This document shows, piece by piece, positions 1 through 15,394 of a stretch of DNA of 32,000 bases (within the stretch, counting starts at the first letter, position 1; each line of letters starts with the position of its first letter). A program made the position numbers and the translations under genes. Where the stretch lies: the NCBI GenBank assembly GCA_023898425.1, contig CP060222.1, forward strand, positions 450,001 through 482,000, given 5' to 3'. The DNA is from Candidatus Saccharimonadota bacterium. Lineage in GTDB: Bacteria > Patescibacteriota > Patescibacteriia > 2-12-FULL-60-25. Below the pieces are notes generated by a model, which saw only the letters and a program-made list of their open reading frames with translations, ran no database searches and was not told the origin of the DNA.

Positions 1-165
1 GGCTCTACATCAGCAGTTGTCACAAATTCTGTGCCACCCTTATTACTACCTAGCCCAAAAAGGAGTTTTTGGTTTTCAACTAAATTGATTGTGTTGCCTT
101 CTTCTGCCATTCGTTTGTAATGGTCAACAAACAATTGCTGATTATCTGTTGTAGGTGTTGTAACT

Positions 166-594
166 TCATAAAAAAATCTTATCCACCGTCGCATCTTCTG
201 GGCCCCAGGGCTCCCTAATAGTCTTTTTAACGATCTTCCCATTAAGTGTCACAGCACCTATCGGCTCATAACCTATGAAGGTAAAAGCATAGGCTAGAGG
301 TACACTTGAAAGCTCATCACATGAAAGCTCTTCGGGTGTTTGTGGATAGTTGTTAGACGTCTTAGGTTGGATCGCTGGTTCTACGACTTCTGACGCTGGC
401 TGAATTTGATTTATCATCACACTCATAGAATCTTCTGATGCGTTCAGTCGTCTATCTAGGTACACGTATCCCAAGAGCGTCATTCCAAGGGCGAACAAGA
501 TAACAAACATCGTTGCCTTTAGAAGGCTTGCATTTGTTGCCGGACGAGAGAGTTTTTTATTGAGTTTCATAGTGCAATGAGCAGATAATACCAT
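166..594 (-). CDS. Hypothetical signal-anchored protein (possibly frame-broken and running off the window)
   Basis: ORF-track ORF. A basic N-terminus is followed by a hydrophobic helix (ATMFVILFALGMTLLGYVYL). No family recognised. A stop-free frame continues from 165 to position 1 (EVTTPTTDNQQLFVDHYKRMAEEGNTINLVENQKLLFGLGSNKGG...). It is reached by a 1-nt shift inside the A7 run at 170-176. Confidence 0.5.
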   Translation of the reverse strand: MVLSAHCTMKLNKKLSRPATNASLLKATMFVILFALGMTLLGYVYLDRRLNASEDSMSVMINQIQPASEVVEPAIQPKTSNNYPQTPEELSCDELSSVPLAYAFTFIGYEPIGAVTLNGKIVKKTIREPWGPEDATVDKIFL

Positions 595-633
595 AGTCTA
601 CAATAAACGATGAAATAATCTTGATGATTACAT

Positions 634-657
634 AAAACCGCCCGAATGGGCGGTTTT
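634..657 (-). terminator. Rho-independent terminator hairpin downstream of tRNA-Ser(TGA)
   Basis: AAAACCGCCC-gaat-GGGCGGTTTT is a perfect 10-bp stem. It has A/T runs on both sides, so it could act bidirectionally. Confidence 0.7.
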
Positions 658-662
658 ATGTA

Positions 663-753
663 TGGCGGAGAAGGAGGATTCGAACCCTCGGTACGGTTAA
701 AGCCGTACGACGGATTTCAAGTCCGTTGCATTCGACCACTCTGCCACCTCTCC
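663..753 (-). tRNA. tRNA-Ser (anticodon TGA), class II with long variable arm, CCA encoded
   Basis: The reverse complement reads GGAGAGG TG GCA GAGTGGTCGAA TGC A ACGGA CTTGAAA TCCGT (variable arm) GAGGG TTCGAAT CCTC CTTCTCC G CCA. The anticodon loop is CTTGAAA. The T-stem 3' strand is only 4 nt (CCTC where CCCTC is expected). Confidence 0.85.
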
Positions 754-871
754 ATTTGGTGTGATCGTGCGAGCATAATACGCAAAACGACTAAAAAGGA
801 CAAGCTGACTCTAATCCCTGACTTCTTATAACAAAATAGCGTCCTAACATGCCGCTTGTGCGCTTTCAGTT

Positions 872-1204
872 TTACTTCACCGAATATTTTGATGCGAGGG
901 ATAACCGAAGTCTATACTCACCCCATTTTGCTTGTTCTGCACGCATTCTATTGTATACCTGAGCTGGATCAATCGCTTCATTTGCCATAACACCATCAAG
1001 TAGCTCATAGAAATATGCTAGCTGCTGTACGATCATCTCGCTTTGGTTGCTTCGAGCAGGCCAATCTAGCTTTTGTCCGGTGGTATCTAGCTTGGCTTCG
1101 AATACGTTTGAATATTTTGCTTCTAAACTCTTCTTGACTTAGCACACGAGCTTCGTGAGCACGACTATCGGCAAATGACGCTAAAATGCCATCCTTGTGA
1201 TCAT
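872..1204 (-). pseudogene. Degraded gene remnant, unknown family
   Basis: On the minus strand an 89-codon stop-free frame spans 872-1138 (KKSLEAKYSNVFEAKLDTTGQKLDWPARSNQSEMIVQQLAYFYELLDGVMANEAIDPAQVYNRMRAEQAKWGEYRLRLSLASKYSVK*). An ATG at 1204 lies in a different frame. No ORF of 60 aa or more is in the track. Confidence 0.3.
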
Positions 1205-1234
1205 ACCGCTAACCTCCGATTTGAGGTTAGCGGT
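1205..1234 (-). promoter_or_regulatory. Perfect 12-bp hairpin that contains the GGAGG Shine-Dalgarno of the remnant gene
   Basis: ACCGCTAACCTC-cgattt-GAGGTTAGCGGT. On the minus strand the GGAGG lies inside the 3' arm and the ATG at 1204 follows immediately. Confidence 0.3.
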
Positions 1235-1643
1235 AAACATATTATTGAACCAGCGTTATAGCATTCATAGTGTTATTATGCTATTATTCCGGCATCTATG
1301 CCTTTATTGAAAAAAAGTATACAGAATTTTGTTGCTTGCCCTACTTTGCAATGTATTTCTCCCATCGATGACCTATGCTGCACCTGTCACGATTGCTGGC
1401 TTTGAGATGTCCGGTAACACCGGGAATGAAGTGGCGGTTAACGCTACTGTTAATGACGTAGATTTAGAAACGGCTACTGTTACGCGAGGTTCAGGCATTA
1501 CCGCAACAAATCTCAGTAATGCTTTTTCTGCCAATAACTTTGTTATCGGAGGTACCAAATCAGATGCTTTAACAAACAATGAATATTATGAAGTCTCACT
1601 GCAATCGAAAAATGGCCTGAGTCTTTCTTTGGATCAAATAACT

Positions 1644-1747
1644 TTCAACATCAGACGAAGTAGCACAGGACCAAATGCATACCAGTGGCAATATAGCCTT
1701 GACGGGTTTGCTACCCCTGGAGTTGATATTGGCGCAGAAGGATCATA
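1644..1747 (+). repeat. Intragenic DNA repeat, copy 1 (104 nt)
   Basis: TTCAACATCAGACGAAGTAGCACAGGACCAAATGCATACCAGTGGCAATATAGCCTTGACGGGTTTGCTACCCCTGGAGTTGATATTGGCGCAGAAGGATCATA. Identical to 2199-2301 except for one extra C. Confidence 0.9.
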
Positions 1748-1857
1748 TACAGATACAGCGACGAACGGCGCTTCTATGACGCCTATTGATTTAACGACAG
1801 AAGCAGATCTTCAAAAAATCCCTGTAGGCCATACGATCACCTTTCGGCTCTATGCTT

Positions 1858-1897
1858 GGGGAGCAACCGGAGGACCTGGAACATTCGCTATCGGACG
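1858..1897 (+). repeat. Intragenic 40-nt identical repeat, copy 1
   Basis: GGGGAGCAACCGGAGGACCTGGAACATTCGCTATCGGACG is also present at 2950-2989. It encodes WGATGGPGTFAIGR. Confidence 0.85.
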
Positions 1898-2198
1898 ACA
1901 GATTGGTGATGATTTGGCTTTTGTTGGTACGCTAGGGTCTGGAGCGCTGGCTTCGTTCGAGCCACAAGGTCTCGATGGGGATGAACCATCTTTAGCGGCA
2001 ACGACCCTATCCACAGATCTTAACATCGCTCTTTTAGACCGAGGGCCAGGTATTGGTGGCTCTGCTCTCAATGACGGGTTCTCCTCTAACGCTTATACGA
2101 TAGCTGGCACAAAAACCGACGCTATCAATCAGGGTGATTATCTACAAATTACACTTGAGGCAAAAGATAATTATCGTGCTTCTTTTAGCGAGATACTC

Positions 2199-2301
2199 TT
2201 CAACATCAGACGAAGTAGCACAGGACCAAATGCATACCAGTGGCAATATAGCCTTGACGGGTTTGCTACCCTGGAGTTGATATTGGCGCAGAAGGATCAT
2301 A
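2199..2301 (+). repeat. Intragenic DNA repeat, copy 2 (103 nt, one C fewer)
   Basis: Same sequence as 1644-1747, with CCC (2269-2271) in place of CCCC. This difference coincides with the frame break. Confidence 0.9.
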
Positions 2302-2949
2302 CGTTGGAACAGAAACAAATGGACTAACGATGCCTGCAGTCAACTTAAACGTTGTGCCAGAGCTACAAAAAGCAAAAGATGTTACCTTTAGGCTCTACGC
2401 TTGGGGAGCTACGACTGGAGCAGGTACTTTTGCCCTTGCTCGACTGTCAGGTGATGATCTTGTCTTTACGGGTTTTGTGAGCCCTAATAACGTATTAGCT
2501 TTTGAGCAACTAGGCAAAAGCGGTAACGAGATTACTCTCTATTGCAACTACTATCGACACACACCTCCAAATATCAGAGTTCTCGAGAGGGGCGGGGATA
2601 GTTGCATCAGCTCTTAGTGATGCTTACTCTGCGACGGGCTTTGATGCGGGGCATACGATGGCAGACGCTATCGCCAATGATGAATATATTGAGTTTTCAC
2701 TCAATTCAAATACCGGTTGGTATGCAAACCTTGATCGTATTGAATTTAGTCTTCGACGTAGTGGTACTGGACCAAATGTGTATCAGTGGCAATACAGTAA
2801 TGACTATTTTGCAACAGCCGGCATTCCAATTGGAGTACCTGAAACATATGCAGGTATAGAAAATAACGGTCTACAGATGCCAGCGGTCGATCTTTCATCG
2901 ATACCTGCGTTGCAAAACACAACAGGAACAACTTTCAGACTCTACGCCT

Positions 2950-2989
2950 GGGGAGCAACCGGAGGACCTGGAACATTCGCTATCGGACG
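2950..2989 (+). repeat. Intragenic 40-nt identical repeat, copy 2
   Basis: Identical to 1858-1897. Confidence 0.85.
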
Positions 2990-3312
2990 GTTAGCGGGTA
3001 ATGATCTCTCACTCATCGGTGAGGTTAAAACCTACCAATATACGGTTCAATATCTTGCTGGTGTCGGAGGTAGTATCACGGGTACATCACATCAAACAAT
3101 TAACTATGGTGACGCCACAACGCAAGTTATTGCTACACCTCAGTTAGGATTTCAATTTGATTCGTGGAGTGACGCGAATTTAATTAACGCAAGAAACGAC
3201 AGCAATGTCACAAGCGACCACACATACACTGCTCAATTTTCACCAATTATCCTTCCTCCACAACAGAGTTACGGTGGACTAGGTCTATTTACCCCTCCAC
3301 CAAGCATTGGCA

Positions 3313-3324
3313 GAGAGAGAGAGA
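3313..3324 (+). repeat. (GA)6 dinucleotide tract at an ORF junction
   Basis: GAGAGAGAGAGA sits directly before the TGA at 3327-3329. The downstream ORF frame (GTG at 3326) is open through the tract. Confidence 0.9.
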
Positions 3325-3325
3325 A

Positions 3326-3925
3326 GTGACGATCGCGATGAATAGCGCTCGTGATATAGGTTTTATTGAAAATACAGGTGTAAACACTTTGTTCTTTATC
3401 CATTCAACCGCAACGTTTACGGCTCCTTCAAAAACAACTAACAAGTTAATCCCCTCAAGCGTTACACTCAAATACGCAGATCTCTATAGAAATCATATTC
3501 GTGTACAGTTTAAAGGATTGTCCGATGAGCTTACTCTAGCCATAGGGGATACTGAAAATATTGATCTTGATGGTGATGGCACCCCGATATTCAGGCAACG
3601 TTTGTCCATGTGTACGTAAATCGCATCGAGCTAACACTCCAGCCTTATAACAAATCTTTCGTAGAGGTCGTTGCTCCAGAGACTAAGCCTCAGCCAACAA
3701 AGTCCACCTCCTATATTTTTACACGTGACTTAAAAACACTCTCAACGGGCGATGACGTACAAGAGCTACAAAAAATACTTAAACTCACAAGGGTTCATAC
3801 TTGTCACAACGGGCCCAGGATCACCAGGACAAGAAACACAAAAGTTTGGTGCCGCAACTCGTAATGCTCTTATCCGTTATCAAGAACAAAATAATATTCA
3901 GCCTGCTATTGGGTATTTTAAATAA
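3326..3925 (+). pseudogene. C-terminal continuation of the surface protein with a peptidoglycan-binding (PG_binding_1-like) domain; frame-broken
   Basis: ORFs 3326-3619 and 3610-3864 plus a third frame reading LNSQGFILVTTGPGSPGQETQKFGAATRNALIRYQEQNNIQPAIGYFK*. Joined, this gives ..LSTGDDVQELQKIL-NSQGF..FGAATRNALIRYQ.., a PG-binding-type helix bundle. The breaks are at C4 3582-3585 and in the A-rich 3770-3783 region. Confidence 0.6.
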
Positions 3926-4007
3926 TAACCCGAGGTTTTATCAATAAATAGCGATTTCTTGCTCAAACGTGAATTGTTGGGTATTCTAGCGAGGCTTTTT
4001 AGCCTAA

Positions 4008-4098
4008 GGAGAGATACCCAAGAGGCTGAAGGGCAGGATTGCTATCCTGTAGGGGGCCTCAAAGCCCCGCGAGGGTTCGAATCCCTCTCTCTCCGCCA
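4008..4098 (+). tRNA. tRNA-Ser (anticodon GCT), class II, CCA encoded; anticodon arm one nt short
   Basis: GGAGAGA TA CCC AAGAGGCTGAA GGG CAGGA TTGCTA TCCTG (variable arm GGGGC..GCCCC) GAGGG TTCGAAT CCCTC TCTCTCC G CCA. The stem CAGGA/TCCTG leaves a 6-nt loop, TTGCTA, where 7 nt is expected. Confidence 0.75.
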
Positions 4099-4100
4099 TA

Positions 4101-4130
4101 GAAAAACACCGTCAATTGACGGTGTTTTTC
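4101..4130. terminator. Bidirectional terminator hairpin; core of a 50-bp perfect palindrome (4091-4140)
   Basis: GAAAAACACCGTCAATTGACGGTGTTTTTC. The palindrome extends outward to CTCCGCCATA / TATGGCGGAG, so it includes the last 8 nt of the tRNA. Confidence 0.8.
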
Positions 4131-4132
4131 TA

Positions 4133-4166
4133 TGGCGGAGTGTATTGGACGTAGTTCGATTGTATT
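4133..4166 (-). repeat. Inverted repeat, left copy (34 bp, 30/34 match to 9829-9862); reads as a gene 3' end on the minus strand
   Basis: The plus strand reads TGGCGGAGTGTATTGGACGTAGTTCGATTGTATT. The minus strand reads ..L I Q S N Y V Q Y T P P TAG, with the stop at 4132-4130. Confidence 0.85.
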
Positions 4167-4191
4167 AATGATAGGAAATTTTTGGTTTTGC
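4167..4191 (+). repeat. 25-bp perfect direct repeat, left copy
   Basis: AATGATAGGAAATTTTTGGTTTTGC is identical to 9734-9758. Confidence 0.95.
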
Positions 4192-4289
4192 TGCTGCCGC
4201 TTCAATTTACATTTATTCATGTATTTGTTATTATTTAAATATATAACATTAAAACTTTATATTTTACTTTATATACAATATTATACAAT

Positions 4290-4485
4290 ATGAGCATTGC
4301 AATTAATCTAAAAAGATCCGAGCCGAGAATGGCTATCCCTCGAAAAGGTCGCAAGGCTCGCTGATTTGTCTCTCAATACGATTGTTAAGATAGAAAATGG
4401 AGTAAATCAAAATCCTACAATCGACACCTTGTCTAAAATCGCAAAGGCATTAGAAGTCAGAGTTGATGATTTAATACAAAAATAA
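4290..4485 (+). pseudogene. XRE-family helix-turn-helix regulator, two frame breaks
   Basis: MSIAINLK.. reads in frame 1. Other frames give LKKIRAENGY and then SLEKVARLADLSLNTIVKIENGVNQNPTIDTLSKIAKALEVRVDDLIQK*. The length is 196 nt, which is 2 short of 66 codons. It is a paralogue of the intact HTH at 22242-22505. Confidence 0.65.
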
Positions 4486-4487
4486 TT

Positions 4488-5688
4488 ATGAAAAATATTG
4501 ATACTAACAACGAAAAGATCGAGGAAATTCTAACGCGTTCAATCGCTGAGATTCTGCCTACCAAAGATGGTTTACGTAACGAATTGAAATCCGGCAAAAG
4601 ACTCCGTATTTACACGGGGACAGACGCAACAGGAACATCGCTCCATATCGGACATGCTACAAATTATATGGTTTTGGAAAAACTACGTAGATTAGGGCAC
4701 GAAGTTATCTTTCTTGTTGGAGATTTTACTGCACGAATTGGGGATCCAACGGACAAAAACGAAACGGCACGAAAGCAACTTACGCGTGAGCAAGTCATAG
4801 AAAATGTTAAGACATGGATTGACCAAGTCCGACCAGTCATTGATGTTGATAACAAAGAAAATCCTGTACGGATACTTTTTAATAATGACTGGCTTTCCAA
4901 ACTATCCTTTGAAGATGTTATAAATCTCGCGTCAAATTTTACAGTTCAGCGAATGATCGAGCGAGATATGTTTCAAGTACGCATGCAAAGTAATAAGCCT
5001 TTATATTTGCATGAAATGCTTTATCCACTTATGCAGGGCTATGATTCTGTTGCAATAGATGTTGATGTTGAAATGTGCGGCAGAGACCAAAAATTCAATG
5101 CACTCGCAGGGCGCACACTGTTAAAGAAAATCAAAAACAAAGAGAAGTTTGTGTTAATAACAACATTGCTTGAAAATCCAAAAACTGGAGAAAAAATGAT
5201 GTCAAAATCAATGGGTACCGGTGTATTCCTTGATTTTGATGCAAATATAAATGTATGGATCACTCATGTCTCAACCCGATGAAAACATGAGGCAGTTATT
5301 TACTGATTGTACTTGGTTGGACCTAAAAGAAATTGACGAAATTCTCAAAACTGATAATCCGCGAGATTCTAAAATGCGTTTGGCATTTGAAATAACAAAA
5401 ATTTATCATGGTGATAAGGCGGCTAAATCTGCTGAAAATAACTTTATAGGAATCTTTCAGAAAAAGGAGCTACCTAACGAAATGCGGTCTTATAAGCTGA
5501 CTGATGATACCTCTGATTTGATCGACGTGTTGGTATTCACAGGGCTTGCAAGTAGTAAAAAGTGATGCGAGGAGATCAATTGATTCTGGATCAATAAGAA
5601 TTGACGGGATTAAGGTTATCAGTGAACTTAGTTTGCCAAAAATAAAGAATTCATTTTGCAAAAGGAAAAAGATATTTTATTAAGATAA
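4488..5688 (+). pseudogene. tyrS: Tyrosyl-tRNA synthetase (class I, HIGH/KMSKS, C-terminal S4-like domain), at least 3 frame breaks
   Basis: Motifs present: [79 protein letters not shown]. The next frame gives MYGSLMSQPDENMRQLF..NPRDSKMRLAFEITKIYHG. A third frame gives SDARRSIDSGSIRIDGIKV (S4). The breaks are near 5245-5255, 5548-5553 and 5640-5660. Confidence 0.75.
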
Positions 5689-5699
5689 CAAGCTAACGT

Positions 5700-6469
5700 A
5701 TGTTGTTAACGAAAAAACAGAAAAGCTTTTGGGACAGGAATGGTTACCTGCATTTACAGGGGATTTTACCAAAGGAATATGTCGCTGAACTATTAAAAGA
5801 GATAGATGTTTTGCACAAGAAATATGAAGTTATTGACTCAGATAAGCCTTTTCAAGTTGGGCTTGATAGAAAATTTATAGTAGCCGACCATCCCATTTTC
5901 AAGGATTTGATTGATTGTGAGTACAGCTTCCCATATATACTTGAAATAATGGGACCGTGTATTCAACTTTGCATGTCGCATGCTCTTATTAGACCGGCAA
6001 AGAATGATTTTGAGGGGTTTGTCCATACAGACGGCGGGCAATCAATGCAAAGCGTCTATATCGACGCCAAAGGTAAGCCTTTGCAAATAAAAATCCAGTA
6101 TTTTCTTACCGATGTAGATTTGAAATTTTCAGGAAATTTTATTTATAAACCTGGTAGCCACAAAATACCTTTCCCGGTTTATGATAAAGATAGATATCAA
6201 AAACGAAGAATATGCGTCAATTACTTGCCAAGGCTGGTGATGTAGCAATTTTTACGAATGCGCTTTGGCATGGAGCAACCAAAAACATATCTAACAAAGA
6301 TAGAAAGAGCTTAATCTATGGATATAATCAAATGTTTCTTCGTCCATATGATTATCACGTTGCACCAGATAATCTTCTAAATACCTGCATCAAAAGACAA
6401 CGACGCCTCCTTGGTGATTTGGGAACACTTAAGCCACAGGCGCATTATTATGCCCCCAAGATCAAATAA
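5700..6469 (+). pseudogene. Phytanoyl-CoA dioxygenase (PhyH)-family Fe(II)/2-oxoglutarate oxygenase, one frame break
   Basis: N-terminal KQKSFWDRNGYLHLQGILP, an HTD facial-triad motif (FVHTDGG) and a distal His in AIFTNALWHGATKNISNKDRKSLIYGYN. ORFs 5700-6245 and 6212-6469 overlap in different frames. The break is in the A5 run at 6199-6203. Confidence 0.65.
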
Positions 6470-6510
6470 CGATAATGGAGGGAGTAGATGAAATTCTTGA
6501 TAAATAATTT

Positions 6511-8173
6511 ATGGACAGATATTTTAAAAACTATCAAAAACTATTTGTCGGTCAAAAAGATGGCGATTTAAAAAACTCATCAACTCAATTATTTTTCTTT
6601 TGATGGATTAGATAAAACTTTTTTTTCAAAAAGTAGTGCTGTTTTTCACAACGAATCGATCAAAACCAATTTTTCTAATGAAGTCCCTGAAATTGGGAAA
6701 AAATCAAATGATGTTCTAAGAGAAATAATACCTGCATTTAAAGATATAATTCACTGGAACAATCCGAGGGTATTACATAATATTACTTCTCCATCATTAA
6801 TCGATGGGGTTGCAGCAAAAACACTGACCAACCTCTACAATCCAAATTGTATTTGGGACTATGTGAGCGGCCATTTTATCGATATGGAAAATTCTGTTTC
6901 AAACCAAATCGCAAATCTGGTCGGGTATTCAAGTGATTATAAGGGTGTTTTTACCTTTGGAGGAAAGGGACATTAATGTACGCGATTAAGTTAGGAATTA
7001 ATAGGTGTGATCCTAATAATACTATCAATGGTATTGACAAGGATATGGTTGTCCTTACGTCTGAGTCAAACCACTATTCAATAGAATACATTTGTAATCT
7101 TCTTGGTTTGGGGAAGAAGGCGTGTATACGTATACCAGTAGACAATGAAGGACTGATTGATTTTAAGACGTTCCAAGAAACAGCTGAGAGACTACTCAAG
7201 CAAAATAAAAAGATAGTATGCGTCATATTATCTGGAGGTAATTCACTGAATAATACGGTTGATCCTATAAAAGAAGTTGTTAGTTACATTGAAAATGTAA
7301 CGCAAAAATTTAATCTAAGTTATAAACCGTTTGTTCATGTAGATACGGTTATCGGATGGTTATGGTTAATGTTTAATGGATATGATTTTTCAAAAATGAT
7401 CTCAATATTAAACACGGGGCCCTCGCAAAAATTCAAAAAAATGAACACAAGGCTAATCGAATTAAAGCTTGCAGATTCGATTGGTATCGATTTTCACAAA
7501 AACGCTTTCGCGTCTTATATATCAAGTATGTATCTTTGCAAGTCAAATAAAGAATTGCTGTCATTGAATTCCAATGTATTGCAAGACAATTCTCAAAAAA
7601 AATATGGCGATAACTTCCTTCAGCACTTCACAATTGAGCATAGTAGAAGTGGCGATGGGATAATTTCCGCCTATATTTCTCTGCAAGAAATTGGGATTGA
7701 TGGGTTTAGGCAATATATCGCAAAAATGATGGAAGCTCATGATTACATCGAACATAACATTGATAGAAAAAGTTTTGAAATTATAAATCCGCACGGCTTA
7801 GGGTTTCCCGTAGTCTTATTTCCAAAACCGAATTTTTATTCTGGTTTATATAGTAATCTAGAGAATGATTCAGAGGAGGGAATATCAGAAATCAGAGATT
7901 ATTGTTACGAGTTATTTGAATATATATCTTCTCAAAAGGAGAGAATTCTCCGGTAATTGGTTATGTCTCTAATTACTCGCATTCTATTGATGGTATTGAT
8001 ATTCCTGCGCTTAAATTGTATCCAATGTCAGTTGAGATAAATGAGAAAAAAAATTGGAAGTAGCATTGACACAGTTACACGATACAAAACAGAAGTTTGA
8101 TGGAAATATGCAAAATAATATTAATGAAACAAAAAAAAAAAATTCTGGCGAAGGAATAGTGTTTCCAAAATGA
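6511..8173 (+). pseudogene. Group II PLP-dependent decarboxylase-like enzyme, several frame breaks
   Basis: Central ORF 6976-7956 has LTSESNHYSIEYICNLLGLG, FVHVDTVIGW and DFHKNAF (candidate PLP lysine). An ATG-less upstream frame reads ..HWNNPRVLHNITSPSLIDGVAAKTLTNLYNPNCIWDYVSG..FTFGGKG. The N-terminus MDRYFKNYQKLF starts at 6511. C-terminal fragments in other frames run to the TGA at 8171-8173. Confidence 0.6.
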
Positions 8174-8177
8174 ATTT

Positions 8178-9066
8178 ATGATTACTCCTGAGTATAAAAG
8201 AAATGTCGATAGGGCTATAAGAACTTTTGTAAAAGAAATAAAAACGCAAGATGGTTTGGTGGGCATAATATTGCTCGGAGGATTGGGTAAAAAGCAGCAT
8301 TTCGATGAATTATCTGACGTTGACATATCACTTTTCATAAGTGGAAAAAGCGAAATCAACCAGATTGGCTCCCAGAATTTGAATTTAATATCTTCATGCA
8401 CGATAGTCAAAGAATTCATTTCAATGTTCATCAACAAAATTTTAAAAAAGAGAAGTCTGCTTATTGGGATGATGCGAAAAAAGATGCGTACAGTAACGGC
8501 CTCGTTCTTTACGAAAAAGAGAAGATGTTATCGAACTTTTTGCAAAATAAGTTGCGGATTACAAGACCAGAATATGAGCAAAAGTTGATGACGCAATACA
8601 TCAAAATACCTCCTTCCTGTCTTATAAATCCTGAAAAGCAATTAAAAAGGGGCGAGATTGAGCTTTCACACCAGATTATTAATAATGGGATAGAGAGTCT
8701 TATTGATCTACTTTTTATTATCAATAAAAATTTGTTCCTCACTATAAGTGGAAGCTTAAAAAGTCTTTTGATTTGAAATATCAACCAAGTAATTTTCAGA
8801 AAAATATACACGATGCAATGCTAGTCCGTTCGTTTACCGAGATGGATGTAAAAAGGAGAATAAAAATCATCAAGATGGTTTCAAATGAGCTGATGGGTAA
8901 AGTTGAAAAAATACTTTCACTGAATGAGGAATTAATATATCAAATTTCTTGCAATAAATTTTTAAATAGACAACTTTTAAAAACACCGTTTGGGACACAA
9001 ATAAGGAAACGGTTAGAGAAAGATAAATTTATTACACATGAACAAATTCAAAAATTACAGGACTGA
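8178..9066 (+). pseudogene. Nucleotidyltransferase-fold protein (pol-beta-type NTase), two frame breaks
   Basis: GIILLGGLGKKQHFDELSDVDISLF matches the G[GS]x9-13DxD NTase motif. Three overlapping or adjacent ORFs (8178-8588, 8396-8776, 8773-9066) read on in shifted frames. Confidence 0.55.
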
Positions 9067-9180
9067 TAAATTTTCACACAATAAACGATTACCAGACATT
9101 AGAAGAAATCCTAAAGGGCGGTTTGATATTTGATCGCGAAGAGAGAAAAACTTTATTTGATATATTATAATTACACAAAT

Positions 9181-9568
9181 ATGAATCAAAGCAACACATT
9201 ATTAAATCTTGGGTGGAATATGATGAATGATAAAGACCAGGATAGACTAAATATCGACAAATTCTCACTTTATCCATTTGTAACCTACTCAGAGGAATAT
9301 GCCACTTGGGACATGATGCTCAATAGAGCAAAAAATGTTGCTGCGTATGGAAATCAAAATCTAGCAGAGCAACTTTTGAATGAACAGAAAAGTATTCCTG
9401 AGAATTGGAAAAAACACAATATTATTTTCCCAAACACGCTCTGGAAGTCAGTAACTGGACATATTTTGTGCCCTTATCTGTCTTTTTAAAGGTAATAAGT
9501 GGACATTAAATTATTACTGGTTTTTATACGATTTCCATCATAACGATAGATTTTTAATAATAAAATAA
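9181..9568 (+). pseudogene. Hypothetical protein, one frame break
   Basis: Starts MNQSNTLLNLGWNMMND.. from the ATG at 9181, inside ORF 9130-9489. After the T5 run at 9483-9487 the next frame continues KGNKWTLNYYWFLYDFHHNDRFLIIK*. No family recognised. Confidence 0.4.
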
Positions 9569-9733
9569 TATTAATATTAGCAAGTACGTCGAGCGAACAC
9601 GGAGCAACACCGAGCAGGCATTGTGAGCGAAGCGAACGGCCAATGCGAGGTGATTGCGAAGTGTGAGCGGACGCTAGGACTACCAAAGAACGCGGAGACG
9701 GGAGCGCCTCGCGCCGACGGGAGCCGCAAAAAA

Positions 9734-9758
9734 AATGATAGGAAATTTTTGGTTTTGC
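9734..9758 (+). repeat. 25-bp perfect direct repeat, right copy
   Basis: AATGATAGGAAATTTTTGGTTTTGC is identical to 4167-4191. Confidence 0.95.
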
Positions 9759-9828
9759 CCCGCGCAAGCTTGTCGAGCGCGGCCGAGGCGCAAGTTTTAT
9801 TCGTCAAAATCCTGCGGATTTTGCCCGA

Positions 9829-9862
9829 AATACATTCGAACTTTGTCCAATACACACCGCCA
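9829..9862 (+). repeat. Inverted repeat, right copy (34 bp)
   Basis: AATACATTCGAACTTTGTCCAATACACACCGCCA. Its reverse complement matches 4133-4166 at 30 of 34 positions. Confidence 0.85.
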
Positions 9863-9863
9863 T

Positions 9864-9893
9864 AAAATACCATCGTTTAAACGATGGTATTTT
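9864..9893 (+). terminator. Terminator hairpin homologous to the one at 4101-4130
   Basis: AAAATACCATCG-tttaaa-CGATGGTATTTT is followed by CTTTTG. Relative to AAAACACCGTC..GACGGTGTTTT, the stem differences are paired (C>T with G>A, and G>A with C>T). Confidence 0.8.
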
Positions 9894-10010
9894 CTTTTGT
9901 TAAAACATATAAATGATATTGACAGAATGTGTTTTGTCTACGAAGCTCTGATATGAACGGTTCACGTTCAATGCTTTGCACATTCGCTACCAATCGAGGG
10001 AGACTAACAG

Positions 10011-10493
10011 ATGAGCGCACTACTCAAAGACTGGGCTGAGGCCAATGTACCAAACAAAGAACTGTACTACGCGGCGGGATACACCGAGCAAATCGATTTC
10101 ATTCAAGACAGAATCGCTCGTCTCGTCACCAAGTCTTACGAGGAGTATCTGACTCTTCAAGATTACTTGACCGTGATCGCCGACCACACGTCTAAGTCCG
10201 TACGCCTACCGGTCATTCGTATGGAGCTCGAAGACGGCACCGTGTTCGTAATGCGGCATAACTTCAACGATTGGAAGGTGTCCGTGAACTCGCCTCGAGA
10301 CTTCGACGCTGACTTCATGGAGCTCTTCGATCCAAAGAAAGCCGTCCATGGTGTCTATTGCGAAGGTTTTCCGCCAGATCTGGTCTATGGACCATACGCC
10401 GAAAACAAGCGTCAGTTCACTATCATGCTTCCGGGCAACTACCACGTTTTCACCTTCTTCTGGATTTATGCGCGTCGCGTACAGTCCAGCTAG
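10011..10493 (+). CDS. Hypothetical protein (160 aa), GC-rich orphan
   Basis: Intact ORF with GAGGGAG 8-14 nt upstream of the ATG. It is noticeably more GC-rich than neighbouring genes and is followed by two strong hairpins. No family recognised. Confidence 0.6.
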   Translation: MSALLKDWAEANVPNKELYYAAGYTEQIDFIQDRIARLVTKSYEEYLTLQDYLTVIADHTSKSVRLPVIRMELEDGTVFVMRHNFNDWKVSVNSPRDFDADFMELFDPKKAVHGVYCEGFPPDLVYGPYAENKRQFTIMLPGNYHVFTFFWIYARRVQSS

Positions 10494-10498
10494 CCATT

Positions 10499-10524
10499 GG
10501 CGCACGACCCGAGAGTCGTGCGCC
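10499..10524 (+). terminator. Terminator hairpin 1 after the orphan ORF
   Basis: GGCGCACGAC-ccgaga-GTCGTGCGCC, followed by GTTTAATT. Confidence 0.65.
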
Positions 10525-10544
10525 GTTTAATTACCTTCACTTTG

Positions 10545-10564
10545 AACGACCCTCCCGGGTCGTT
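10545..10564. terminator. Terminator hairpin 2, shared by convergent genes
   Basis: AACGACCC-tccc-GGGTCGTT, followed by TT. It lies between the stops at 10493 (+) and 10569 (-). Confidence 0.6.
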
Positions 10565-10568
10565 TTAC

Positions 10569-10940
10569 TTACCCCTTCCAAACTTTCCCATCCTTCACCT
10601 GCTTCATGCGATACTTCACAATCTTCTTAATCAACATTTTCGGCAACGGCTTATCGAGCGGAAACTGAATGGTGCCCGCGCTTGTTTTGTAGTTTGTGAG
10701 TTCTTTGGCGAATGTTTTGATGAGTTCAGCGCCCGGGTAAATACCGATATGTGTCTTAGCCGGCCCAAAGTTCAGCAAGATGGTTCGGTATGAATAGGAT
10801 GGCATGCTCCATTTAAGCCCTTCGACGGCGTCTGGTGCTGTTTTGCGGATGATGGCACGCAATTCACGCATCTTTGCGCGCGTTTCTTTTGGAGCAGCGT
10901 TGATAAATTCGGTGACCGTTGTTGGTTTTGGGATGGCCAT
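10569..10940 (-). CDS. DUF1801 (YdhG-like) domain protein
   Basis: Shows the pattern typical of DUF1801 proteins: TVTEFINAAPKETRAKMRELRAIIRKTAPDAVEGLKWSMPSY..IGIYPG..GTIQFPLDKPLP. Confidence 0.7.
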   Translation of the reverse strand: MAIPKPTTVTEFINAAPKETRAKMRELRAIIRKTAPDAVEGLKWSMPSYSYRTILLNFGPAKTHIGIYPGAELIKTFAKELTNYKTSAGTIQFPLDKPLPKMLIKKIVKYRMKQVKDGKVWKG

Positions 10941-10981
10941 ATAGATATAGGATAGGCGCTTTGTTGCGTAGAATCAAATAT

Positions 10982-11026
10982 TTTTATAGAAAATAACGCC
11001 TTATTAAGGCGTTATTTTCTATAAAA
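10982..11026. terminator. Perfect 21-bp-stem hairpin
   Basis: TTTTATAGAAAATAACGCCTT-att-AAGGCGTTATTTTCTATAAAA. It lies downstream of the minus-strand Zn-ribbon gene and upstream of the DUF1801 gene. Confidence 0.7.
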
Positions 11027-11135
11027 CCTATAGACCTAGAGCGCGTGCTTAATCCATTTGTTGGTGAACTTGAACATCTGTGAAGAGCTTTCTTTATAAT
11101 TTACAAACTTTTTACTATAATCTATATTTGCAAAT

Positions 11136-11431
11136 TTACGATTTTCTTGGCGATCGAGCCAGCAAAAAGGCGGTAGGCTTGTCGTTGTTCTTTTTGTAGA
11201 TCATTCGTACTCCCAATACCTCATTGCAAGCAGGGCAATCAAGAGACTTATTCGTTAATGATATTTTTAGGTCGATGATACGATCAATATATATCCGTTT
11301 TAAAATCCTGGCCCATCTTTTTGATACATGAAGATGACTTCATTACACTTTTCGCATGAAATTTGAAGAAGCCGAGAGTAACCACCTCGGGCTTTTTTGT
11401 ATTTATCAGACTTAAACAAGGTCTTTTTCAT
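11136..11431 (-). pseudogene. Small zinc-ribbon protein (2 x CxxC), single frame break
   Basis: The minus strand reads MKKTLFKSDKYKKARGGYSRLLQISCEKCNEVIFMYQKDGPG. After a 1-nt shift near 11305-11315 it continues ILKRIYIDRIIDLKISLTNKSLDCPACNEVLGVRMIYKKNNDKPTAFLLARSPRKS*. The length is 296 nt, 1 short of 99 codons. It is absent from the ORF track because both halves are under 60 aa. Confidence 0.55.
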
Positions 11432-11515
11432 TCTTTAAGCCTAGCAAATTATGAATTCATTGTCTTTACTCTTCCACTTAACTTATACTAACCAAACTCA
11501 ATATTAGGGAGCTCT

Positions 11516-12034
11516 ATGAATAATGAACAAATCCGCAATATACTCAGTGAATTAGTTTCTTCAGAAAACGAGGATCGTTGGTGGAGAACCGATCTATTTA
11601 GAAAATATACGTTTTCGCAAATTCCATCCGAACTCAAAATAATTGATTTTCCACCCGAAGAAGAGAAAAATTATAACTGTTTTCTTTATGCTCTAGGCCT
11701 TCAAAACGACCAACGTTTTCTCGGTAATGCTGGCTGGGAATTTACGCGCAATCTGGGCACTACCTTTGAAGCTATGATAGACAAAAAAATTTTGACGATA
11801 AGTCTTTCGCCAGAAAAAGGGGACATGATTCTCTATCGTGCAAATGATGGGTCTATCTCTCATGTTGGCCTTGTAGATGGCCAGAATACTGTTATTTCAA
11901 AATGGTCATGGGGCCCAATCATTAAACATAGTATTTTTGATGTTCCTAAAGAGTATGGGGATGTTGTGGAATATTACAAAGCCTCAAAAGAAGCTAGAGA
12001 CTACGTAATTGAAGAATATATTCGCAGTCTTTAA
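11516..12034 (+). CDS. Hypothetical protein, possibly a papain-fold (NlpC/P60- or CHAP-like) Cys-His hydrolase
   Basis: Intact ORF. NYNCFLYALGL is a candidate nucleophile Cys. It is followed by GDMILYR..GSISHVGLVDG and IIKHSIF, which are candidate His residues. The assignment rests on motif resemblance only. Confidence 0.5.
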   Translation: MNNEQIRNILSELVSSENEDRWWRTDLFRKYTFSQIPSELKIIDFPPEEEKNYNCFLYALGLQNDQRFLGNAGWEFTRNLGTTFEAMIDKKILTISLSPEKGDMILYRANDGSISHVGLVDGQNTVISKWSWGPIIKHSIFDVPKEYGDVVEYYKASKEARDYVIEEYIRSL

Positions 12035-12042
12035 CCCACAAT

Positions 12043-12069
12043 AAAACCCACTGATTGTCAGTGGGTTTT
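12043..12069 (+). terminator. Terminator hairpin
   Basis: AAAACCCACTGA-ttg-TCAGTGGGTTTT, followed by ATTATTTTT. Confidence 0.75.
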
Positions 12070-12085
12070 ATTATTTTTGTCACAG

Positions 12086-12479
12086 TTATTTCATTGAATG
12101 TATACCGATCATATTACCCTCAGTGTCACTCGCGAGAGTCATATGTCCATATTCGCCGATAGATAGCTTTGGTTTATGAATTTTTCCACCAGCTTCTACA
12201 ACACGAGCATCTTCAATGCTGCAATCTTCGCTAGAAAAATACACGATGGTGCTATTACCACCCGCTGTGAATCCTTTCATTTTAACTAAAGGTCCTGCCG
12301 CACCTTCAGCTTTTTTCACTAAAAAACATCAACGAAACGTTGCCAGCTTTTCTGATGGCGTATGCCACCACAGGATTGCCGTCTAAAAACCAAACAGGAC
12401 TTCTATGCCAAACCTTTGAATCGCTTTTCTTTAAGTTTGTATTTATGATCAATCTTAAATAATCGCAAATCTCTCTCAT
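12086..12479 (-). pseudogene. VOC/glyoxalase-fold protein, about 3 frame breaks
   Basis: ORF 12086-12319 gives the C-terminal half, GGNSTIVYFSSEDCSIEDARVVEAGGKIHKPKLSIGEYGHMTLASDTEGNMIGIHS. Upstream fragments in other frames read MREICDYL.., AIQRFGIEVLFGF and LDGNPVVAYAIRKAGNVSLMFFSEK. One break is in the A-run at about 12313-12320. Confidence 0.5.
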
Positions 12480-12606
12480 TTAAATTGCTTGTGACTTATA
12501 ATATAAGTTTTTAGCTCTATGCGCAAGCATGTACTTTAAGCGTCCAATTCCCAATCATTAAGATGTTTTCTACCAATAAGACTGTGATACTGCTATAATA
12601 ACCCTT

Positions 12607-14194: not shown

Positions 14195-14458
14195 ATGCCT
14201 AAAGAAAAGATCGCTACAGGAGTCGTTCACAGAATCCCAAAAGATTTAGCGGATATTCTTACGTCTAAACCAAAAGTCCTTGAGCTTTGGAATGGTCTCA
14301 CACCGCTCGCACGTAACGAGTGGATTTGTTGGGTTACAGCGTTTAAAAAAGAAGAAACCCGCCTCAACCACCTCAAGCGTCTTCAAGAAGATTTGTTAAA
14401 AGGTAAGCGTCGTCCTTGCTGTTGGCCTGGATGTAGTCATCGTATTAAAAATCTTTAA
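14195..14458 (+). CDS. YdeI/OmdA-family small protein
   Basis: IPKDLADILTSKPKVLELWNGLTPLARNEWICWVTAFKKEETRLNHLKRLQEDL is characteristic of the YdeI C-terminal domain. Confidence 0.65.
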   Translation: MPKEKIATGVVHRIPKDLADILTSKPKVLELWNGLTPLARNEWICWVTAFKKEETRLNHLKRLQEDLLKGKRRPCCWPGCSHRIKNL

Positions 14459-14550
14459 CAACGATCGTTTTTTTGTTTTGAAGAACATGCAAAGTAGGTA
14501 TCCTTCAACAAATGTTTGCTTCACAGAAATCATTTATCCTTAACTAATAT

Positions 14551-15381
14551 ATGCGCTCAAAATCTATCACAATCGTTCTGTTGGATGGTTCACCTTATGG
14601 AATTAAAATCGCTAAACTAGCGAATTGGAACGGCCAAGCAATTATCGCACCTAGATCAGCCTTGAAGCGGCTAAAGACACTTCCTGAAGGGAATATGCCT
14701 GCTGTCTACTTTTTATTAAGTGATGAAAATAAGATCTACATTGGAGAAACTGATACACTTAGTGATAGATTATCTCAACATAATGCAAATCGAGCAGATT
14801 GGACCACGTTTATCGCCTTTACTTCACCAGAAATTGGTAAAACTGATGTAAAATATTTAGAATACGTATTAGCCGAACGTGTAAAATTAGACGGGCTTGC
14901 AACTTTAGAAAATGCTACCTCGCCACAAAGCCCTACAATCAAAGCATCTGATAAAGATGCTTTAGATGATTTTGTGGACCGAGCTTCAGATATACTGCTA
15001 AGCCTTGGCTACACGATTTTAGGCGTAAATGAAGATATCGAGACACGCACAAAGGAGAAAGGTTTTGAAGTTATACTAAACAGTAAAGACTCAAATGCAA
15101 ATGGCTTTTACAATCAAGATGGACTTTTAGTGATGAAAGGTAGCCTGGCTCGAAAAGCACATACCCCAAGCTTTGAAAAGCTTCCTTGCTATAGATACTA
15201 CAAACAACTTCTACAGAACGGAGTATTAGTACCTCAAGGGTCTAAACATCTAGTATTTACTCAAGATCATCTTTTCTCGTCCCCAAGTTTAGCCGCTGCA
15301 ATGGTTAGAGGCACCTCTAGCAACGGCTTGACTGAATGGAAGACAAAAGAGAACAAGACACTTAAAGAACTAGAGCCGTAA
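14551..15381 (+). CDS. GIY-YIG nuclease domain protein with C-terminal DUF4357
   Basis: N-terminal AVYFLLSDENKIYIGETDTLSDRLSQH (GIY-YIG). C-terminal LLVMKGSLARK..FTQDHLFSSPSLAAAMVRGTSSNGLTEWK (DUF4357 pattern). Confidence 0.7.
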   Translation: MRSKSITIVLLDGSPYGIKIAKLANWNGQAIIAPRSALKRLKTLPEGNMPAVYFLLSDENKIYIGETDTLSDRLSQHNANRADWTTFIAFTSPEIGKTDVKYLEYVLAERVKLDGLATLENATSPQSPTIKASDKDALDDFVDRASDILLSLGYTILGVNEDIETRTKEKGFEVILNSKDSNANGFYNQDGLLVMKGSLARKAHTPSFEKLPCYRYYKQLLQNGVLVPQGSKHLVFTQDHLFSSPSLAAAMVRGTSSNGLTEWKTKENKTLKELEP

Positions 15382-15394
15382 AATCGAAAGCCCT

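Follow-up and report, generated by a model that had tools for sequence, protein, structure and literature searches.

The window analysed here is a 32-kb stretch of a 1.03-Mb genome. It contains a tRNA-Ser gene and, directly beside it, a block of six genes. The features of the locus are as follows (the att assignments are presumed).

4008..4098, + strand: tRNA-Ser(GCU), from ARAGORN; its 3' end would be the integration target, the B arm of the presumed attB
4093..4100, + strand: left 8-bp junction repeat CCGCCATA, the attL core, located by aligning the empty site to both junctions
4101..4130, no strand: linker, a perfect 15+15-nt terminator-like palindrome (GAAAAACACCGTCAA followed by TTGACGGTGTTTTTC), not in the empty site
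4131..4166, - strand: left terminal inverted repeat (TIR), outer 36 nt only (TATGGCGG + AGTGTATTGGACGTAGTTCGATTGTATT), matching the right end over 32 nt at 87.5% identity
4167..4191, + strand: left 25-mer, the inner arm of the TIR hairpin motif, followed by the family-conserved TGCTGCCGCTTCAA
4290..4485, + strand: cargo gene 1, XRE-type helix-turn-helix regulator, 65 aa, with 2 homopolymer frameshifts in the window
4488..5696, + strand: cargo gene 2, full-length tyrosyl-tRNA synthetase, 402 aa (TIGR00234, 343 bits, cut-off 113.8)
5700..6507, + strand: cargo gene 3, PhyH-like 2OG-Fe(II) oxygenase, 269 aa
6511..8173, + strand: cargo gene 4, group II PLP-dependent decarboxylase, 552 aa
8178..9170, + strand: cargo gene 5, DUF4037 protein, 331 aa
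9181..9568, + strand: cargo gene 6, 128-aa protein of unknown function
9577..9733, + strand: GC-rich "tail module", conserved just inside one TIR in about 20 other elements
9734..9758, + strand: right 25-mer, reverse-complementary to the outer hairpin arm in the right TIR
9759..9864, + strand: right TIR, outer 106 nt, near-identical to the family consensus
9829..9864, + strand: last ~36 nt of the right TIR, the presumed P arm of attP plus core
9857..9864, + strand: right 8-bp junction repeat CCGCCATA, the attR core, from the empty-site alignment
9865..9895, + strand: native tRNA-Ser terminator hairpin, displaced by the insertion; it directly follows the tRNA in the empty site

Composition and assembly of the block

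The earlier note described an AT-rich block of six co-directional genes, a GC-rich stretch after them and no recombinase. Each of these points holds. The cargo (4216-9576) has 33.8% GC, against 43.9% in the left flank and 43.2% in the right, where the lowest 5.36-kb window is at 38.9% or higher. The GC-rich stretch is 9577-9733, and the entire right-end module (9577-9864) reaches 54.2%. The tail module is 84-89% identical in most of the other elements that have it, always in the same orientation, and may be a structured RNA. A Pfam search of the block found no recombinase domain, and tblastn found no homologue of the family recombinase described below in the whole window.

All six genes appear frameshifted in the window, which comes from an error-prone long-read assembly. 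They are intact and co-directional at the same locus in three independent Illumina assemblies (L002-L004), which are >99% identical to it. Indel positions make up 38 of the 49 positions that differ between the window and L004, and nearly all are within homopolymer runs. ARAGORN left the anticodon unnamed because the loop has 6 nt in the window. Same-strain Illumina contigs read GCTAA where the window has GCT-A, so this is a normal tRNA-Ser(GCU). Judged against these assemblies, homopolymer sequencing errors account for both the frameshifts and the odd anticodon loop. Error-prone reads also raise the suspicion that the whole block is an artefact, AT-rich foreign DNA chimerically joined into the contig at short repeats. 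However, L002-L004 come from different samples and span both junctions at >99% identity, and the junction repeat is just 8 bp. The short-read assemblies refute this explanation, and we give it practically no credence.

Boundaries of the insertion and the 25-mer

An empty site is present in a relative, L136, which aligns to window positions 9857-11792 at 97.3% identity and has an identical tRNA 3' end. It reads from the tRNA through CTCTCTCCGCCATA directly into AAATACCATCG, joining the left side of attL to the right side of attR with one copy of CCGCCATA. Since L136 joins the tRNA 3' end to window position 9865, the insertion is 4101-9864, or 5,764 bp; the alignment shows these boundaries. An integrated element beside a tRNA gene had been proposed, and a 97%-identical relative precisely without the block bears this out and supports its horizontal acquisition. 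The left CCGCCATA covers the last acceptor-stem bases, the discriminator G, CCA and 2 further nt.

The insert terminates in inverted repeats (4131-4166 and 9829-9864), part of an imperfect inverted repeat at 4119-4166 and 9829-9876. The linker (4101-4130) is inserted DNA, and with its neighbours it makes a perfect 50-nt palindrome (25+25) at 4091-4140 that includes the tRNA 3' end. The earlier note overlooked the inverted repeat, the palindrome and, at the true junctions, the 8-bp direct repeat CCGCCATA. The left TIR is degenerate, with TTCGAT rather than TTCGAA and mismatches at 4/32 positions, so this copy may have lost its mobility. The right TIR has lost an internal segment.

The earlier note took a different repeat for the attachment sites. 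It argued that a 25-mer marks attL and attR of an element at 4167-9758, which recombined through a 25-bp core. The repeat is as described: AATGATAGGAAATTTTTGGTTTTGC occurs exactly twice, both times on the + strand (4167-4191 and 9734-9758), and the left copy begins 69 nt past the tRNA. The window holds no third copy even allowing 3 mismatches, where 0 matches are expected by chance. An exact direct repeat that is not expected by chance and flanks AT-rich genes beside a tRNA does look like a pair of attachment sites. However, the 25-mer is missing from the empty site, where 4100 is followed by 9865 and the expected junction of 4166 with 9759 is not seen. The motif is found as an inverted pair within single ends in dozens of unrelated elements, and the sequence shared with other genomic contexts runs 100 nt past the right 25-mer, to ...CACCGC. 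An element at 4167-9758 with a 25-bp core is refuted by L136, and we consider this reading extremely improbable.

Both 25-mer arms lie within a single end, ~75 nt apart, in 56 of the 94 ends examined, and the window strain is the only one among them with a single arm at each end. From this comparison the 25-mer is a conserved motif inside the element ends and not an attachment site. Each canonical TIR carries the motif as an inverted pair, a hairpin. Deletions in the window copy removed the outer arm on the left and the inner one on the right. The two remaining arms read alike on the + strand, hence the apparent direct repeat. The aligned ends show that this repeat originates in the hairpin arms of the TIRs.

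A family of elements with a large serine recombinase

The end motif TCGAACTNNGTCCAATACAC matches more than 120 metagenome contigs. The sequence inside is conserved, while beyond ...ACACCGC the contigs are unrelated, with 80 singleton flank types. This pattern shows the window ends to be the repeated mobile end of a large family of elements from candidate-phyla-radiation (CPR) bacteria. Relatives with two ends are 4.8-6.4 kb long and their cargo varies between elements. In five of the six the TIRs are 202-278 nt, with 95-100% identity between the two TIRs of an element (98-100% in four of the five); those of L020 share only 77 nt. The canonical member thus has TIRs of 200-280 nt around a variable cargo of restriction-modification, other defence or copper-resistance genes. 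A cargo census gave 108 protein clusters, mostly restriction-modification and other defence, and no recurrent transposase among 98 representative cargo proteins.

Full members have the order tRNA-Ser, a 132-nt repeat X, a large serine recombinase (LSR) gene, X inverted, TIR, cargo, TIR and tRNA terminator. The LSRs have Resolvase, Recombinase and Zn_ribbon_recom domains and are 82-95% identical across CPR lineages. In about 30 ends the gene is located outside one TIR, at a distance of 24-104 nt. The distance from tRNA to TIR is about 1,636-1,640 nt where the contig extends far enough, and that tRNA is mostly tRNA-Ser (called tRNA-Asp once). Two genome-length contigs, L137 and L138 (914 and 743 kb), have the same layout. 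Their attL joins CCGCCA at the tRNA to AAATTG and their attR joins ACACACCGCA to the terminator hairpin, and these junctions have only CCGC in common. At least nine contigs besides the window have an LSR-less layout, where a short terminator-like palindrome connects tRNA-Ser to the TIR. These layouts show the family to be associated with an LSR and tRNA-Ser. Full-text searches of the literature turned up no description of it. The family is apparently a widespread, normally LSR-carrying and undescribed group of cargo elements.

Proposed integration and comparison with known systems

The insertion 4101-9864 is a member of this family, a mobile cassette integrated into a Candidatus Nomurabacteria (CPR) chromosome. 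We argue that it is a non-autonomous copy, probably integrated by the family LSR. The window copy differs from full members in having no LSR and a 30-nt terminator-like palindrome in place of X-LSR-X'; in the canonical relatives compared (L045, L137 and L138) the recombinase gene holds the linker position. We infer that an LSR catalysed the insertion and was supplied in trans or lost afterwards. What links the LSR to these sites would be its constant adjacency and the site architecture. A lost recombinase or mobilisation in trans had been suggested, which is the right kind of idea because relatives carry the recombinase. An unfamiliar insertion mechanism, also suggested, is not needed with an 8-bp junction repeat and an LSR as the family recombinase.

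Integration would most likely be conservative site-specific recombination, with the tRNA-Ser 3' end as attB and the outer TIR end as attP. The half-site assignments put the likely crossover within CCGC, at the tRNA discriminator position, so the element would rebuild the tRNA 3' end and bring a new terminator. The distance from TTCGAA to CCGC is 11 nt in the tRNA but 16 nt in the TIR, and MAFFT puts a 5-nt gap exactly there. The outer TIR end resembles a tRNA 3' end with 5 bp added between TTCGAA and the core. Such an offset is the spacing rule that distinguishes attP from attB half-sites of serine integrases: compared with attP, attB has its zinc-ribbon-domain motif 5 bp closer to the centre (Rutherford et al. 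2013, PMC3783163).

It is worth considering a transposon instead. The block could be a TIR-bounded non-autonomous transposon (a mobile insertion cassette) moved by a transposase in trans, with an 8-bp target duplication and a preference for tRNA-Ser ends. The LSR would be a mere frequent neighbour or a separate element at the same hotspot. Inverted ends with an 8-bp direct repeat at the junctions fit this, as does the lack of a recombinase between the TIRs in most copies. The LSR gene is flanked by 132-nt inverted repeats of its own and is found in either orientation, which would suit an independent module. However, almost every copy has CCGCC(A) as part of its conserved end, irrespective of the flank, so these bases do not come from the target. 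L137 and L138 share only CCGC, and 30 extra nt separate repeat and TIR at the left junction of the window. The 98 representative cargo proteins offer no recurring transposase family, the identifiable proximal ends adjoin tRNA-Ser (apart from the one called tRNA-Asp), the LSR-TIR and tRNA-TIR distances are constant and the end follows the +5-bp rule. We regard a transposon as improbable.

Another scenario has a full LSR-bearing element integrate and then lose its LSR module and parts of its TIRs in place. The cassette would be a fixed, decaying relic that never moved without its recombinase. Large palindromes are prone to deletion, both ends of the window copy have deletions relative to canonical TIRs, its left TIR has diverged and partial X remnants occur at other ends (L089, L106). 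However, the linker is a clean, perfect terminator-like palindrome that bears no relation to the start of X. Each of at least nine other LSR-less copies has a clean palindrome of its own, a pattern unexpected from independent deletions in place. In L078 and L050 the linker is the mirror image of a distal flank. A relic seems rather unlikely to us.

Some points do count against integration by the family LSR. By published serine-integrase rules the LSR-less junction (TIR end, core, terminator-like hairpin) resembles attR rather than attP. The linkers differ among all LSR-less copies and are not simple X remnants. From one tRNA-Ser locus to another the downstream half-sites (B') show no conservation. 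The degenerate left TIR and the lack of an LSR in the 32 kb of this 1.03-Mb genome weigh on the same side.

The family can be compared with SCC/SCCmec. These are cassettes that LSRs integrate into a single conserved housekeeping gene, at its 3' end, with short core-containing direct repeats, inverted ends, variable cargo and tandem or composite arrays. Recombinase-less copies (ccr-less pseudo-SCC) are frequent and depend on supply in trans. Our family is alike in its position at a conserved gene, its repeats and inverted ends, its highly variable cargo, its arrays and its frequent recombinase-less copies; integration by an LSR, and its supply in trans to the copies without one, would be further likenesses. 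The best named NCBIfam match of its LSR is CcrB, but at 98 bits against a cut-off of 900. It differs in targeting tRNA-Ser rather than rlmH and in having a single LSR, distant from the Ccr proteins, outside the TIR-bounded cargo and between two 132-nt inverted repeats. Its TIRs are 200-280 nt and nearly perfect, and its hosts are CPR bacteria.

Serine-integrase prophages and islands (A118, Bxb1, phiC31, SPbeta SprA) share the Resolvase, Recombinase and zinc-ribbon architecture, junctions with few bp in common and a half-site motif that sits 5 bp closer to the core in the host site than in the element site. Our family lacks phage genes, its cargo is just 5-6 kb and its presumed attP occurs twice, inverted, within a long palindrome. 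Its target is a tRNA 3' end that the element rebuilds, which is usual for tyrosine integrases and not for serine integrases. Tyrosine-integrase tRNA islands are alike in this insertion and regeneration of the tRNA, in odd composition and in presence/absence polymorphism between strains. However, no family member examined has a tyrosine recombinase, the junction identity is 4-8 bp where islands usually have a longer tRNA-derived repeat, and the ends are long inverted repeats. Mobile insertion cassettes, MITE-like transposons and pdif modules also have passenger genes between inverted ends without a recombinase of their own, and pdif modules too rely for their movement on a site-specific recombinase whose gene lies elsewhere. 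Neither a DDE transposase relative nor a Xer-type 11-6-11 site was found in the family, and it differs from all of these in its specific target, tRNA-Ser, and in its associated enzyme, an LSR.

Limits of the insertion at tRNA-Ser(GCU)

The features of the locus are as follows, in window coordinates.

4008-4098, tRNA-Ser(GCU) gene
4091-4140, perfect 25+25-nt palindrome that starts within the tRNA 3' end (repeat search)
4093-4100 and 9857-9864, 8-bp direct repeat CCGCCATA that bounds the insertion
4101-9864, inserted DNA
4119-4166 and 9829-9876, imperfect inverted repeat just outside both 25-mers (repeat search)
4167-4191 and 9734-9758, 25-mer AATGATAGGAAATTTTTGGTTTTGC in direct orientation
4216-9576, AT-rich cargo
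9577-9864, GC-rich right-end module

An earlier note described this locus as an AT-rich block of six co-directional genes beside a tRNA, framed by an exact twofold 25-mer and lacking a recombinase. The description is accurate. There is no third 25-mer in the window with up to 3 mismatches allowed (the chance expectation is 0), and the tRNA is confirmed. The cargo has 33.8% GC vs 43-44% in the flanks, and the lowest 5.36-kb window in the right flank has at least 38.9%. The stretch after the genes is indeed GC-rich, at 54.2%. All six genes are intact in L002-L004, contigs for this locus from 3 independent Illumina metagenome assemblies, with >99% identity. The block encodes no recombinase, and no homologue of the family recombinase discussed below was found anywhere in the 32-kb window.

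Cargo genes of the window element, all intact in L002-L004 (product, length)
HTH regulator, 65 aa
tyrosyl-tRNA synthetase, 402 aa
PhyH-like oxygenase, 269 aa
group II PLP-dependent decarboxylase, 552 aa
DUF4037 protein, 331 aa
protein of unknown function, 128 aa

Frameshifts appear to split every block gene in the window sequence, which is an error-prone assembly. Indels make up 38 of the 49 positions that differ from L004, and nearly all are in homopolymer runs. Pseudogenised cargo is rejected because these frameshifts are homopolymer errors. One of the indels is in the anticodon loop, which reads GCT-A in the window and GCTAA in L004. ARAGORN gave the tRNA no name on account of the 6-nt anticodon loop in the window; this loop is false and the gene is an ordinary tRNA-Ser(GCU). 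Relative to same-strain Illumina contigs the window has about 38 indel positions per 10 kb (for example 675, 4043, 4309, 4336, 5248, 6619-6621 and 8131-8133) and many genes are fragmented, including an 884-aa Flg_new_2/PG_binding gene (1298-3951) broken into five ORFs. Within the cargo, 4488-8173 holds a complete extra tyrosyl-tRNA synthetase with the PhyH-like oxygenase and the group II PLP decarboxylase, a set that may be akin to the tyramine operons (tyrS-tdc) known in lactic acid bacteria, or to synthetase-based self-resistance.

The note took the 25-mers for the attL and attR of the element. A scan of GTDB genomes with the 23-mer core gave one match, a 769-bp Woesebacteria MAG contig. It matches the right end near-exactly (window 9645-9860) and is unrelated past ...CACCGC, which suggested a mobile boundary at about 9860 and not at the 25-mer. 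The decisive evidence is an empty site. The gene directly right of the block codes for a 160-aa protein, of which contig L136 encodes a variant with 98% identity; the contig itself is 97.3% identical to window 9857-11792. L136 starts with the final 29 nt of the tRNA gene and a further TA, followed by the hairpin at window 9865-9895, and its empty-site sequence reads ...CGAGGGTTCGAATCCCTCTCTCTCCGCCATA|AAATACCATCG... It joins window 4100 to 9865 with a single copy of the 8-bp repeat, a precise presence/absence polymorphism. The inserted DNA is therefore 4101-9864 (5,764 bp). The 25-mer is absent from the L136 empty site, and the inserted DNA extends past the two window copies by 66 nt on the left and 106 nt on the right. 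The attL/attR reading is thereby refuted: the empty site lacks the repeat, which does not mark the limits of the insert either. The block is confirmed as inserted DNA at the 3' end of the tRNA. Thus the idea of an integrated element at a tRNA without its own recombinase stands, and what falls with L136 is the assignment of its attachment sites to the 25-mer. The circle junction of the window element would read ...GTCCAATACACACCGCCATA|GAAAAACACCGTCAATTGACGG... In the more distant Zambryskibacteria relatives L132-L135 the locus is non-syntenic, with no tRNA upstream.

Two other segments vary near the insertion. Window 11023-12565, a 1.5-kb segment with a DUF7689 gene (11516-12034), is missing from the otherwise collinear L008, which makes it the second case of presence/absence polymorphism; on its left it borders a 44-nt palindrome (10982-11025). 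Window 14443-15382, with a GIY-YIG + DUF4357 gene (14551-15381), is missing from the collinear L002 and looks like a free-standing insertion of the homing-endonuclease type.

A family with shared ends, and the origin of the 25-mer

When metagenomes were scanned for the outer-end motif TCGAACTNNGTCCAATACAC, at least 120 contigs matched. Conservation is high inside the motif, over at least 60 nt, and the flanks beyond ...ACACCGC are unrelated between contigs, with 80 singleton flank types. The right end of the window element follows the family consensus (...TTCGAACTNNGTCCAATACACNCCGC) over >100 nt, and 36 nt of the left end remain, with 87.5% identity. A tRNA-Ser adjoins 27 family ends. Six contigs carry both ends, 4.8-6.4 kb apart, as terminal inverted repeats (TIRs).

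TIRs on the contigs with both ends (contig, aligned length, identity between ends)
L016, 278 nt, 100%
L048, 217 nt, 100%
L045, 214 nt, 99.5%
L080, 204 nt, 98%
L019, 202 nt, 95%
L020, match confined to the outer 77 nt

The cargo varies from element to element and includes copper resistance (L016), a type III restriction-modification system (L045) and methylases with GmrSD (L020). A census of 141 ORFs gave 108 clusters, and restriction-modification and other defence genes dominate the 98 representatives scanned against Pfam. There is no recurrent transposase family among these 98 proteins. One can imagine a DDE-type TIR transposon or a mobile insertion cassette, and we consider both unlikely: these 98 proteins show no recurrent transposase family, and the repeated CCGCC(A) is part of the conserved end, so it fails as a target-derived duplication.

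The structure of the canonical TIR accounts for the 25-mer. Its outermost part, about 60 nt, is conserved and gives way to a variable GC-rich stretch (32-173 nt). Next, going inward, come the outer arm, GCAAAACC(C)AAAAATTTCCTATCATT, a loop measuring 49-122 nt and the inner arm, ..AGGAAATTTTTGGTTTTGC; CGCCGCCGCTTCA then leads into the cargo. Both members of the hairpin arm pair CAAAACCAAAAATTTCCT ... AGGAAATTTTTGGTTTTG lie within one end in 56 of the 94 ends that are long enough. The window has a single hairpin arm per end. Its left TIR has a deletion from position 33 to the inner arm, and its right TIR has lost the inner arm and loop, with the outer arm joined to a conserved "tail module". On the + strand the left inner arm equals the reverse complement of the right outer arm, hence the apparent perfect direct repeat. 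The 25-mer hairpin arms are conserved in sequence and do not covary. The lesson is that an exact direct repeat next to a tRNA, however striking, proved not to be the attachment site, and only the empty site and the family comparison gave the true boundaries.

The GC-rich tail module (9577-9733) is conserved in about 20 elements, at 84-89% in most (including L019, L023, L024, L026, L034 and L045), and in every case it sits immediately inside one TIR, directed outward. The RNAalifold prediction is a long conserved stem, with many one-sided G-U-compatible changes and only 2 compensatory pairs. On this prediction the module could be a structured 3' RNA. Rfam has no family for the GC-rich region or the ends, at gathering thresholds or at E<=1, and ARAGORN rejects a tmRNA or tRNA-like reading of the ...CACCGCCA end.

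Some contigs depart from the canonical form. L139 (2500-9562) has two elements with diverged TIR ends (…GTCCAACAAAC; …GTTCAAAAAAC) at two neighbouring tRNA-Ser-like genes, and a single recombinase gene lies between them, with one element per side. The motif scan therefore understates the breadth of the family. The distal flanks of L063, L070, L087, L088, L090, L096 and L103 have a common motif, TATCGG[CT][AG]TGAC.C.AGTA, which possibly marks where another element, using the same sites, ends. L030 has a 36-bp perfect palindrome of two outer TIR ends (912-947, GTGTATTGGACAAAGTTCGAACTTCGTCCAATACAC), 14 nt from a tRNA-Ser(GGA) and followed by pieces of TIR-internal sequence. This palindrome prompted us to consider a Xer/dif-like module. 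We reject it because L030 represents a rearranged relic and the enzyme that goes with the family belongs to the serine recombinases.

The family recombinase and its probable attachment sites

A large serine recombinase (LSR) of 510-550 aa lies 24-104 nt outside one TIR in about 30 ends. The family members examined have Resolvase, Recombinase and Zn_ribbon_recom domains and are distantly similar to CcrB, XisF, SprA and the A118 integrase. Wherever the contig reaches far enough there is a tRNA about 1,636-1,640 nt from the TIR, mostly tRNA-Ser with anticodon GCU, UGA, CGA or GGA; ARAGORN calls tRNA-Asp once. The LSR gene is flanked by X and X', a 132-nt inverted repeat of 97% identity. One X arm starts at the tRNA ...CACCGCCA and the other ends at the TIR TGGCGGTG... 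The whole arrangement is found on L137 and L138, genome-length contigs (914 and 743 kb) of the Candidate Phyla Radiation (CPR, or Patescibacteria), in the order tRNA-Ser, X, LSR, X', TIR, cargo, TIR, terminator hairpin. Since the LSR is absent from the window and present in about 30 relatives, the window element is a non-autonomous or partly degraded member of a widespread CPR tRNA-Ser cassette family with a serine recombinase.

The LSR has >7,800 relatives with E<1e-30, counted as clusters at 90% identity. The best 120 of these are 85-95% identical (P0038-P0157; L045 LSR gene 115-1659), and their source labels include Liptonbacteria, Pacebacteria, Shapirobacteria and Minisyncoccia. Such identity across very different CPR lineage labels implies recent horizontal spread across the radiation. 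Both LSR orientations occur (27 vs 3), as do both orientations of the cargo beside it (7 head-proximal vs 2 tail-proximal), which suggests flip-flop inversion across the long repeats. This inversion could also keep the repeats identical.

The junctions place the crossover. In L137 and L138 attL reads tRNA..CCGCCA|AAATTG.. and attR reads ..ACACACCGCA|terminator, with only CCGC common to both; the window junctions have the 8-bp repeat in common. The crossover is therefore probably in the discriminator region of tRNA-Ser, and this comparison narrows it only to CCGC. A TTCGAA motif is clear in just one arm per site; its distance from CCGC is 11 nt in the tRNA and 16 nt in the TIR. A MAFFT alignment of the tRNA 3' end with the outer TIR end puts a 5-nt gap exactly at this spacer. 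Rutherford et al. 2013 (PMC3783163) showed for serine integrases that attP has the motif for the zinc ribbon domain 5 bp further from the centre than attB does. By that rule we infer that the tRNA end is the B arm and the TIR end the P arm. The downstream arms are merely A-rich and are unconserved.

The window has a 30-nt perfect terminator-like palindrome at the position of X-LSR-X'. At least 9 other contigs likewise have a tRNA-Ser, a unique terminator-like palindrome and an inverted TIR without the LSR. No two of these linkers are alike, and none matches the beginning of X; those of L078 and L050 are the mirror image of a distal flank. Under the published rules the junction of the LSR-less unit looks attR-like. 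Inversion, double crossover and symmetric deletion were worked by hand, and none yields all features of the LSR-less, palindrome-linked units.

It must be noted that L078 (6705-6745) and L050 (2810-2851), from the same sample series, hold the same hairpin, AAAAAACATGACT-CATTGA-AGTCATGTTTTTT, in two roles: it is the tRNA-to-TIR linker in one contig and the distal-end flank in the other, which suggests that the linkers are copies of native tRNA terminators. The window also has a tRNA-Ser(UGA) on the - strand (664-754, region 600-754) that ends in CCGCCA with no element present. Its terminator is a perfect palindrome, TACATAAAACCGCCC-ATTC-GGGCGGTTTTATGTA, similar to the linkers. This second tRNA-Ser is a candidate for a free attachment site in the same genome.

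Significance and comparison with known elements

One can go further and read the long, near-identical TIRs and the 132-nt X repeats as two inverted complete attP copies. The family would then be a natural platform for recombinase-mediated cassette exchange, in which one highly conserved serine recombinase at tRNA-Ser genes in much of the CPR swaps or mobilises recombinase-less cargo, and the window copy would be a trans-mobilised module and not a relic. We consider this unlikely. If it were true, the swapped modules carry mostly restriction-modification and other defence genes.

The CPR have tiny genomes and are largely uncultured. To our knowledge there are almost no genetic tools for them and little is known of their gene exchange. 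An LSR that is 85-95% identical across lineages, mostly at tRNA-Ser and beside interchangeable defence-rich cargo, points to a major route of gene transfer between them. Both presumed att sites, the 3' end of tRNA-Ser and the end of the TIR, are short with clear limits and might give an integration tool for the CPR.

A phage-like element is rejected, since megablast of window 1-12000 against a phage database gave no match and a scan of viral contigs with the TIR motif gave 0. A full-text literature search found no description of the family, and this absence is no proof of novelty. The general kind is known from serine-recombinase cassette elements such as SCC, including their recombinase-less derivatives. 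However, SCC-type elements use a Ccr recombinase and target rlmH (orfX), whereas this family targets tRNA-Ser. The family LSR scores 98, 59 and 40 bits against the CcrB, CcrA and CcrC models, whose cut-offs are 700-900, so the likeness to SCC is functional only. Relative to the literature found, the host range and the defence-rich cargo are new. So is the architecture: the TIRs are long and near-perfect, an attP-like site is duplicated in inverted form around the LSR gene, and a mimic of the tRNA end fits the +5-bp rule.
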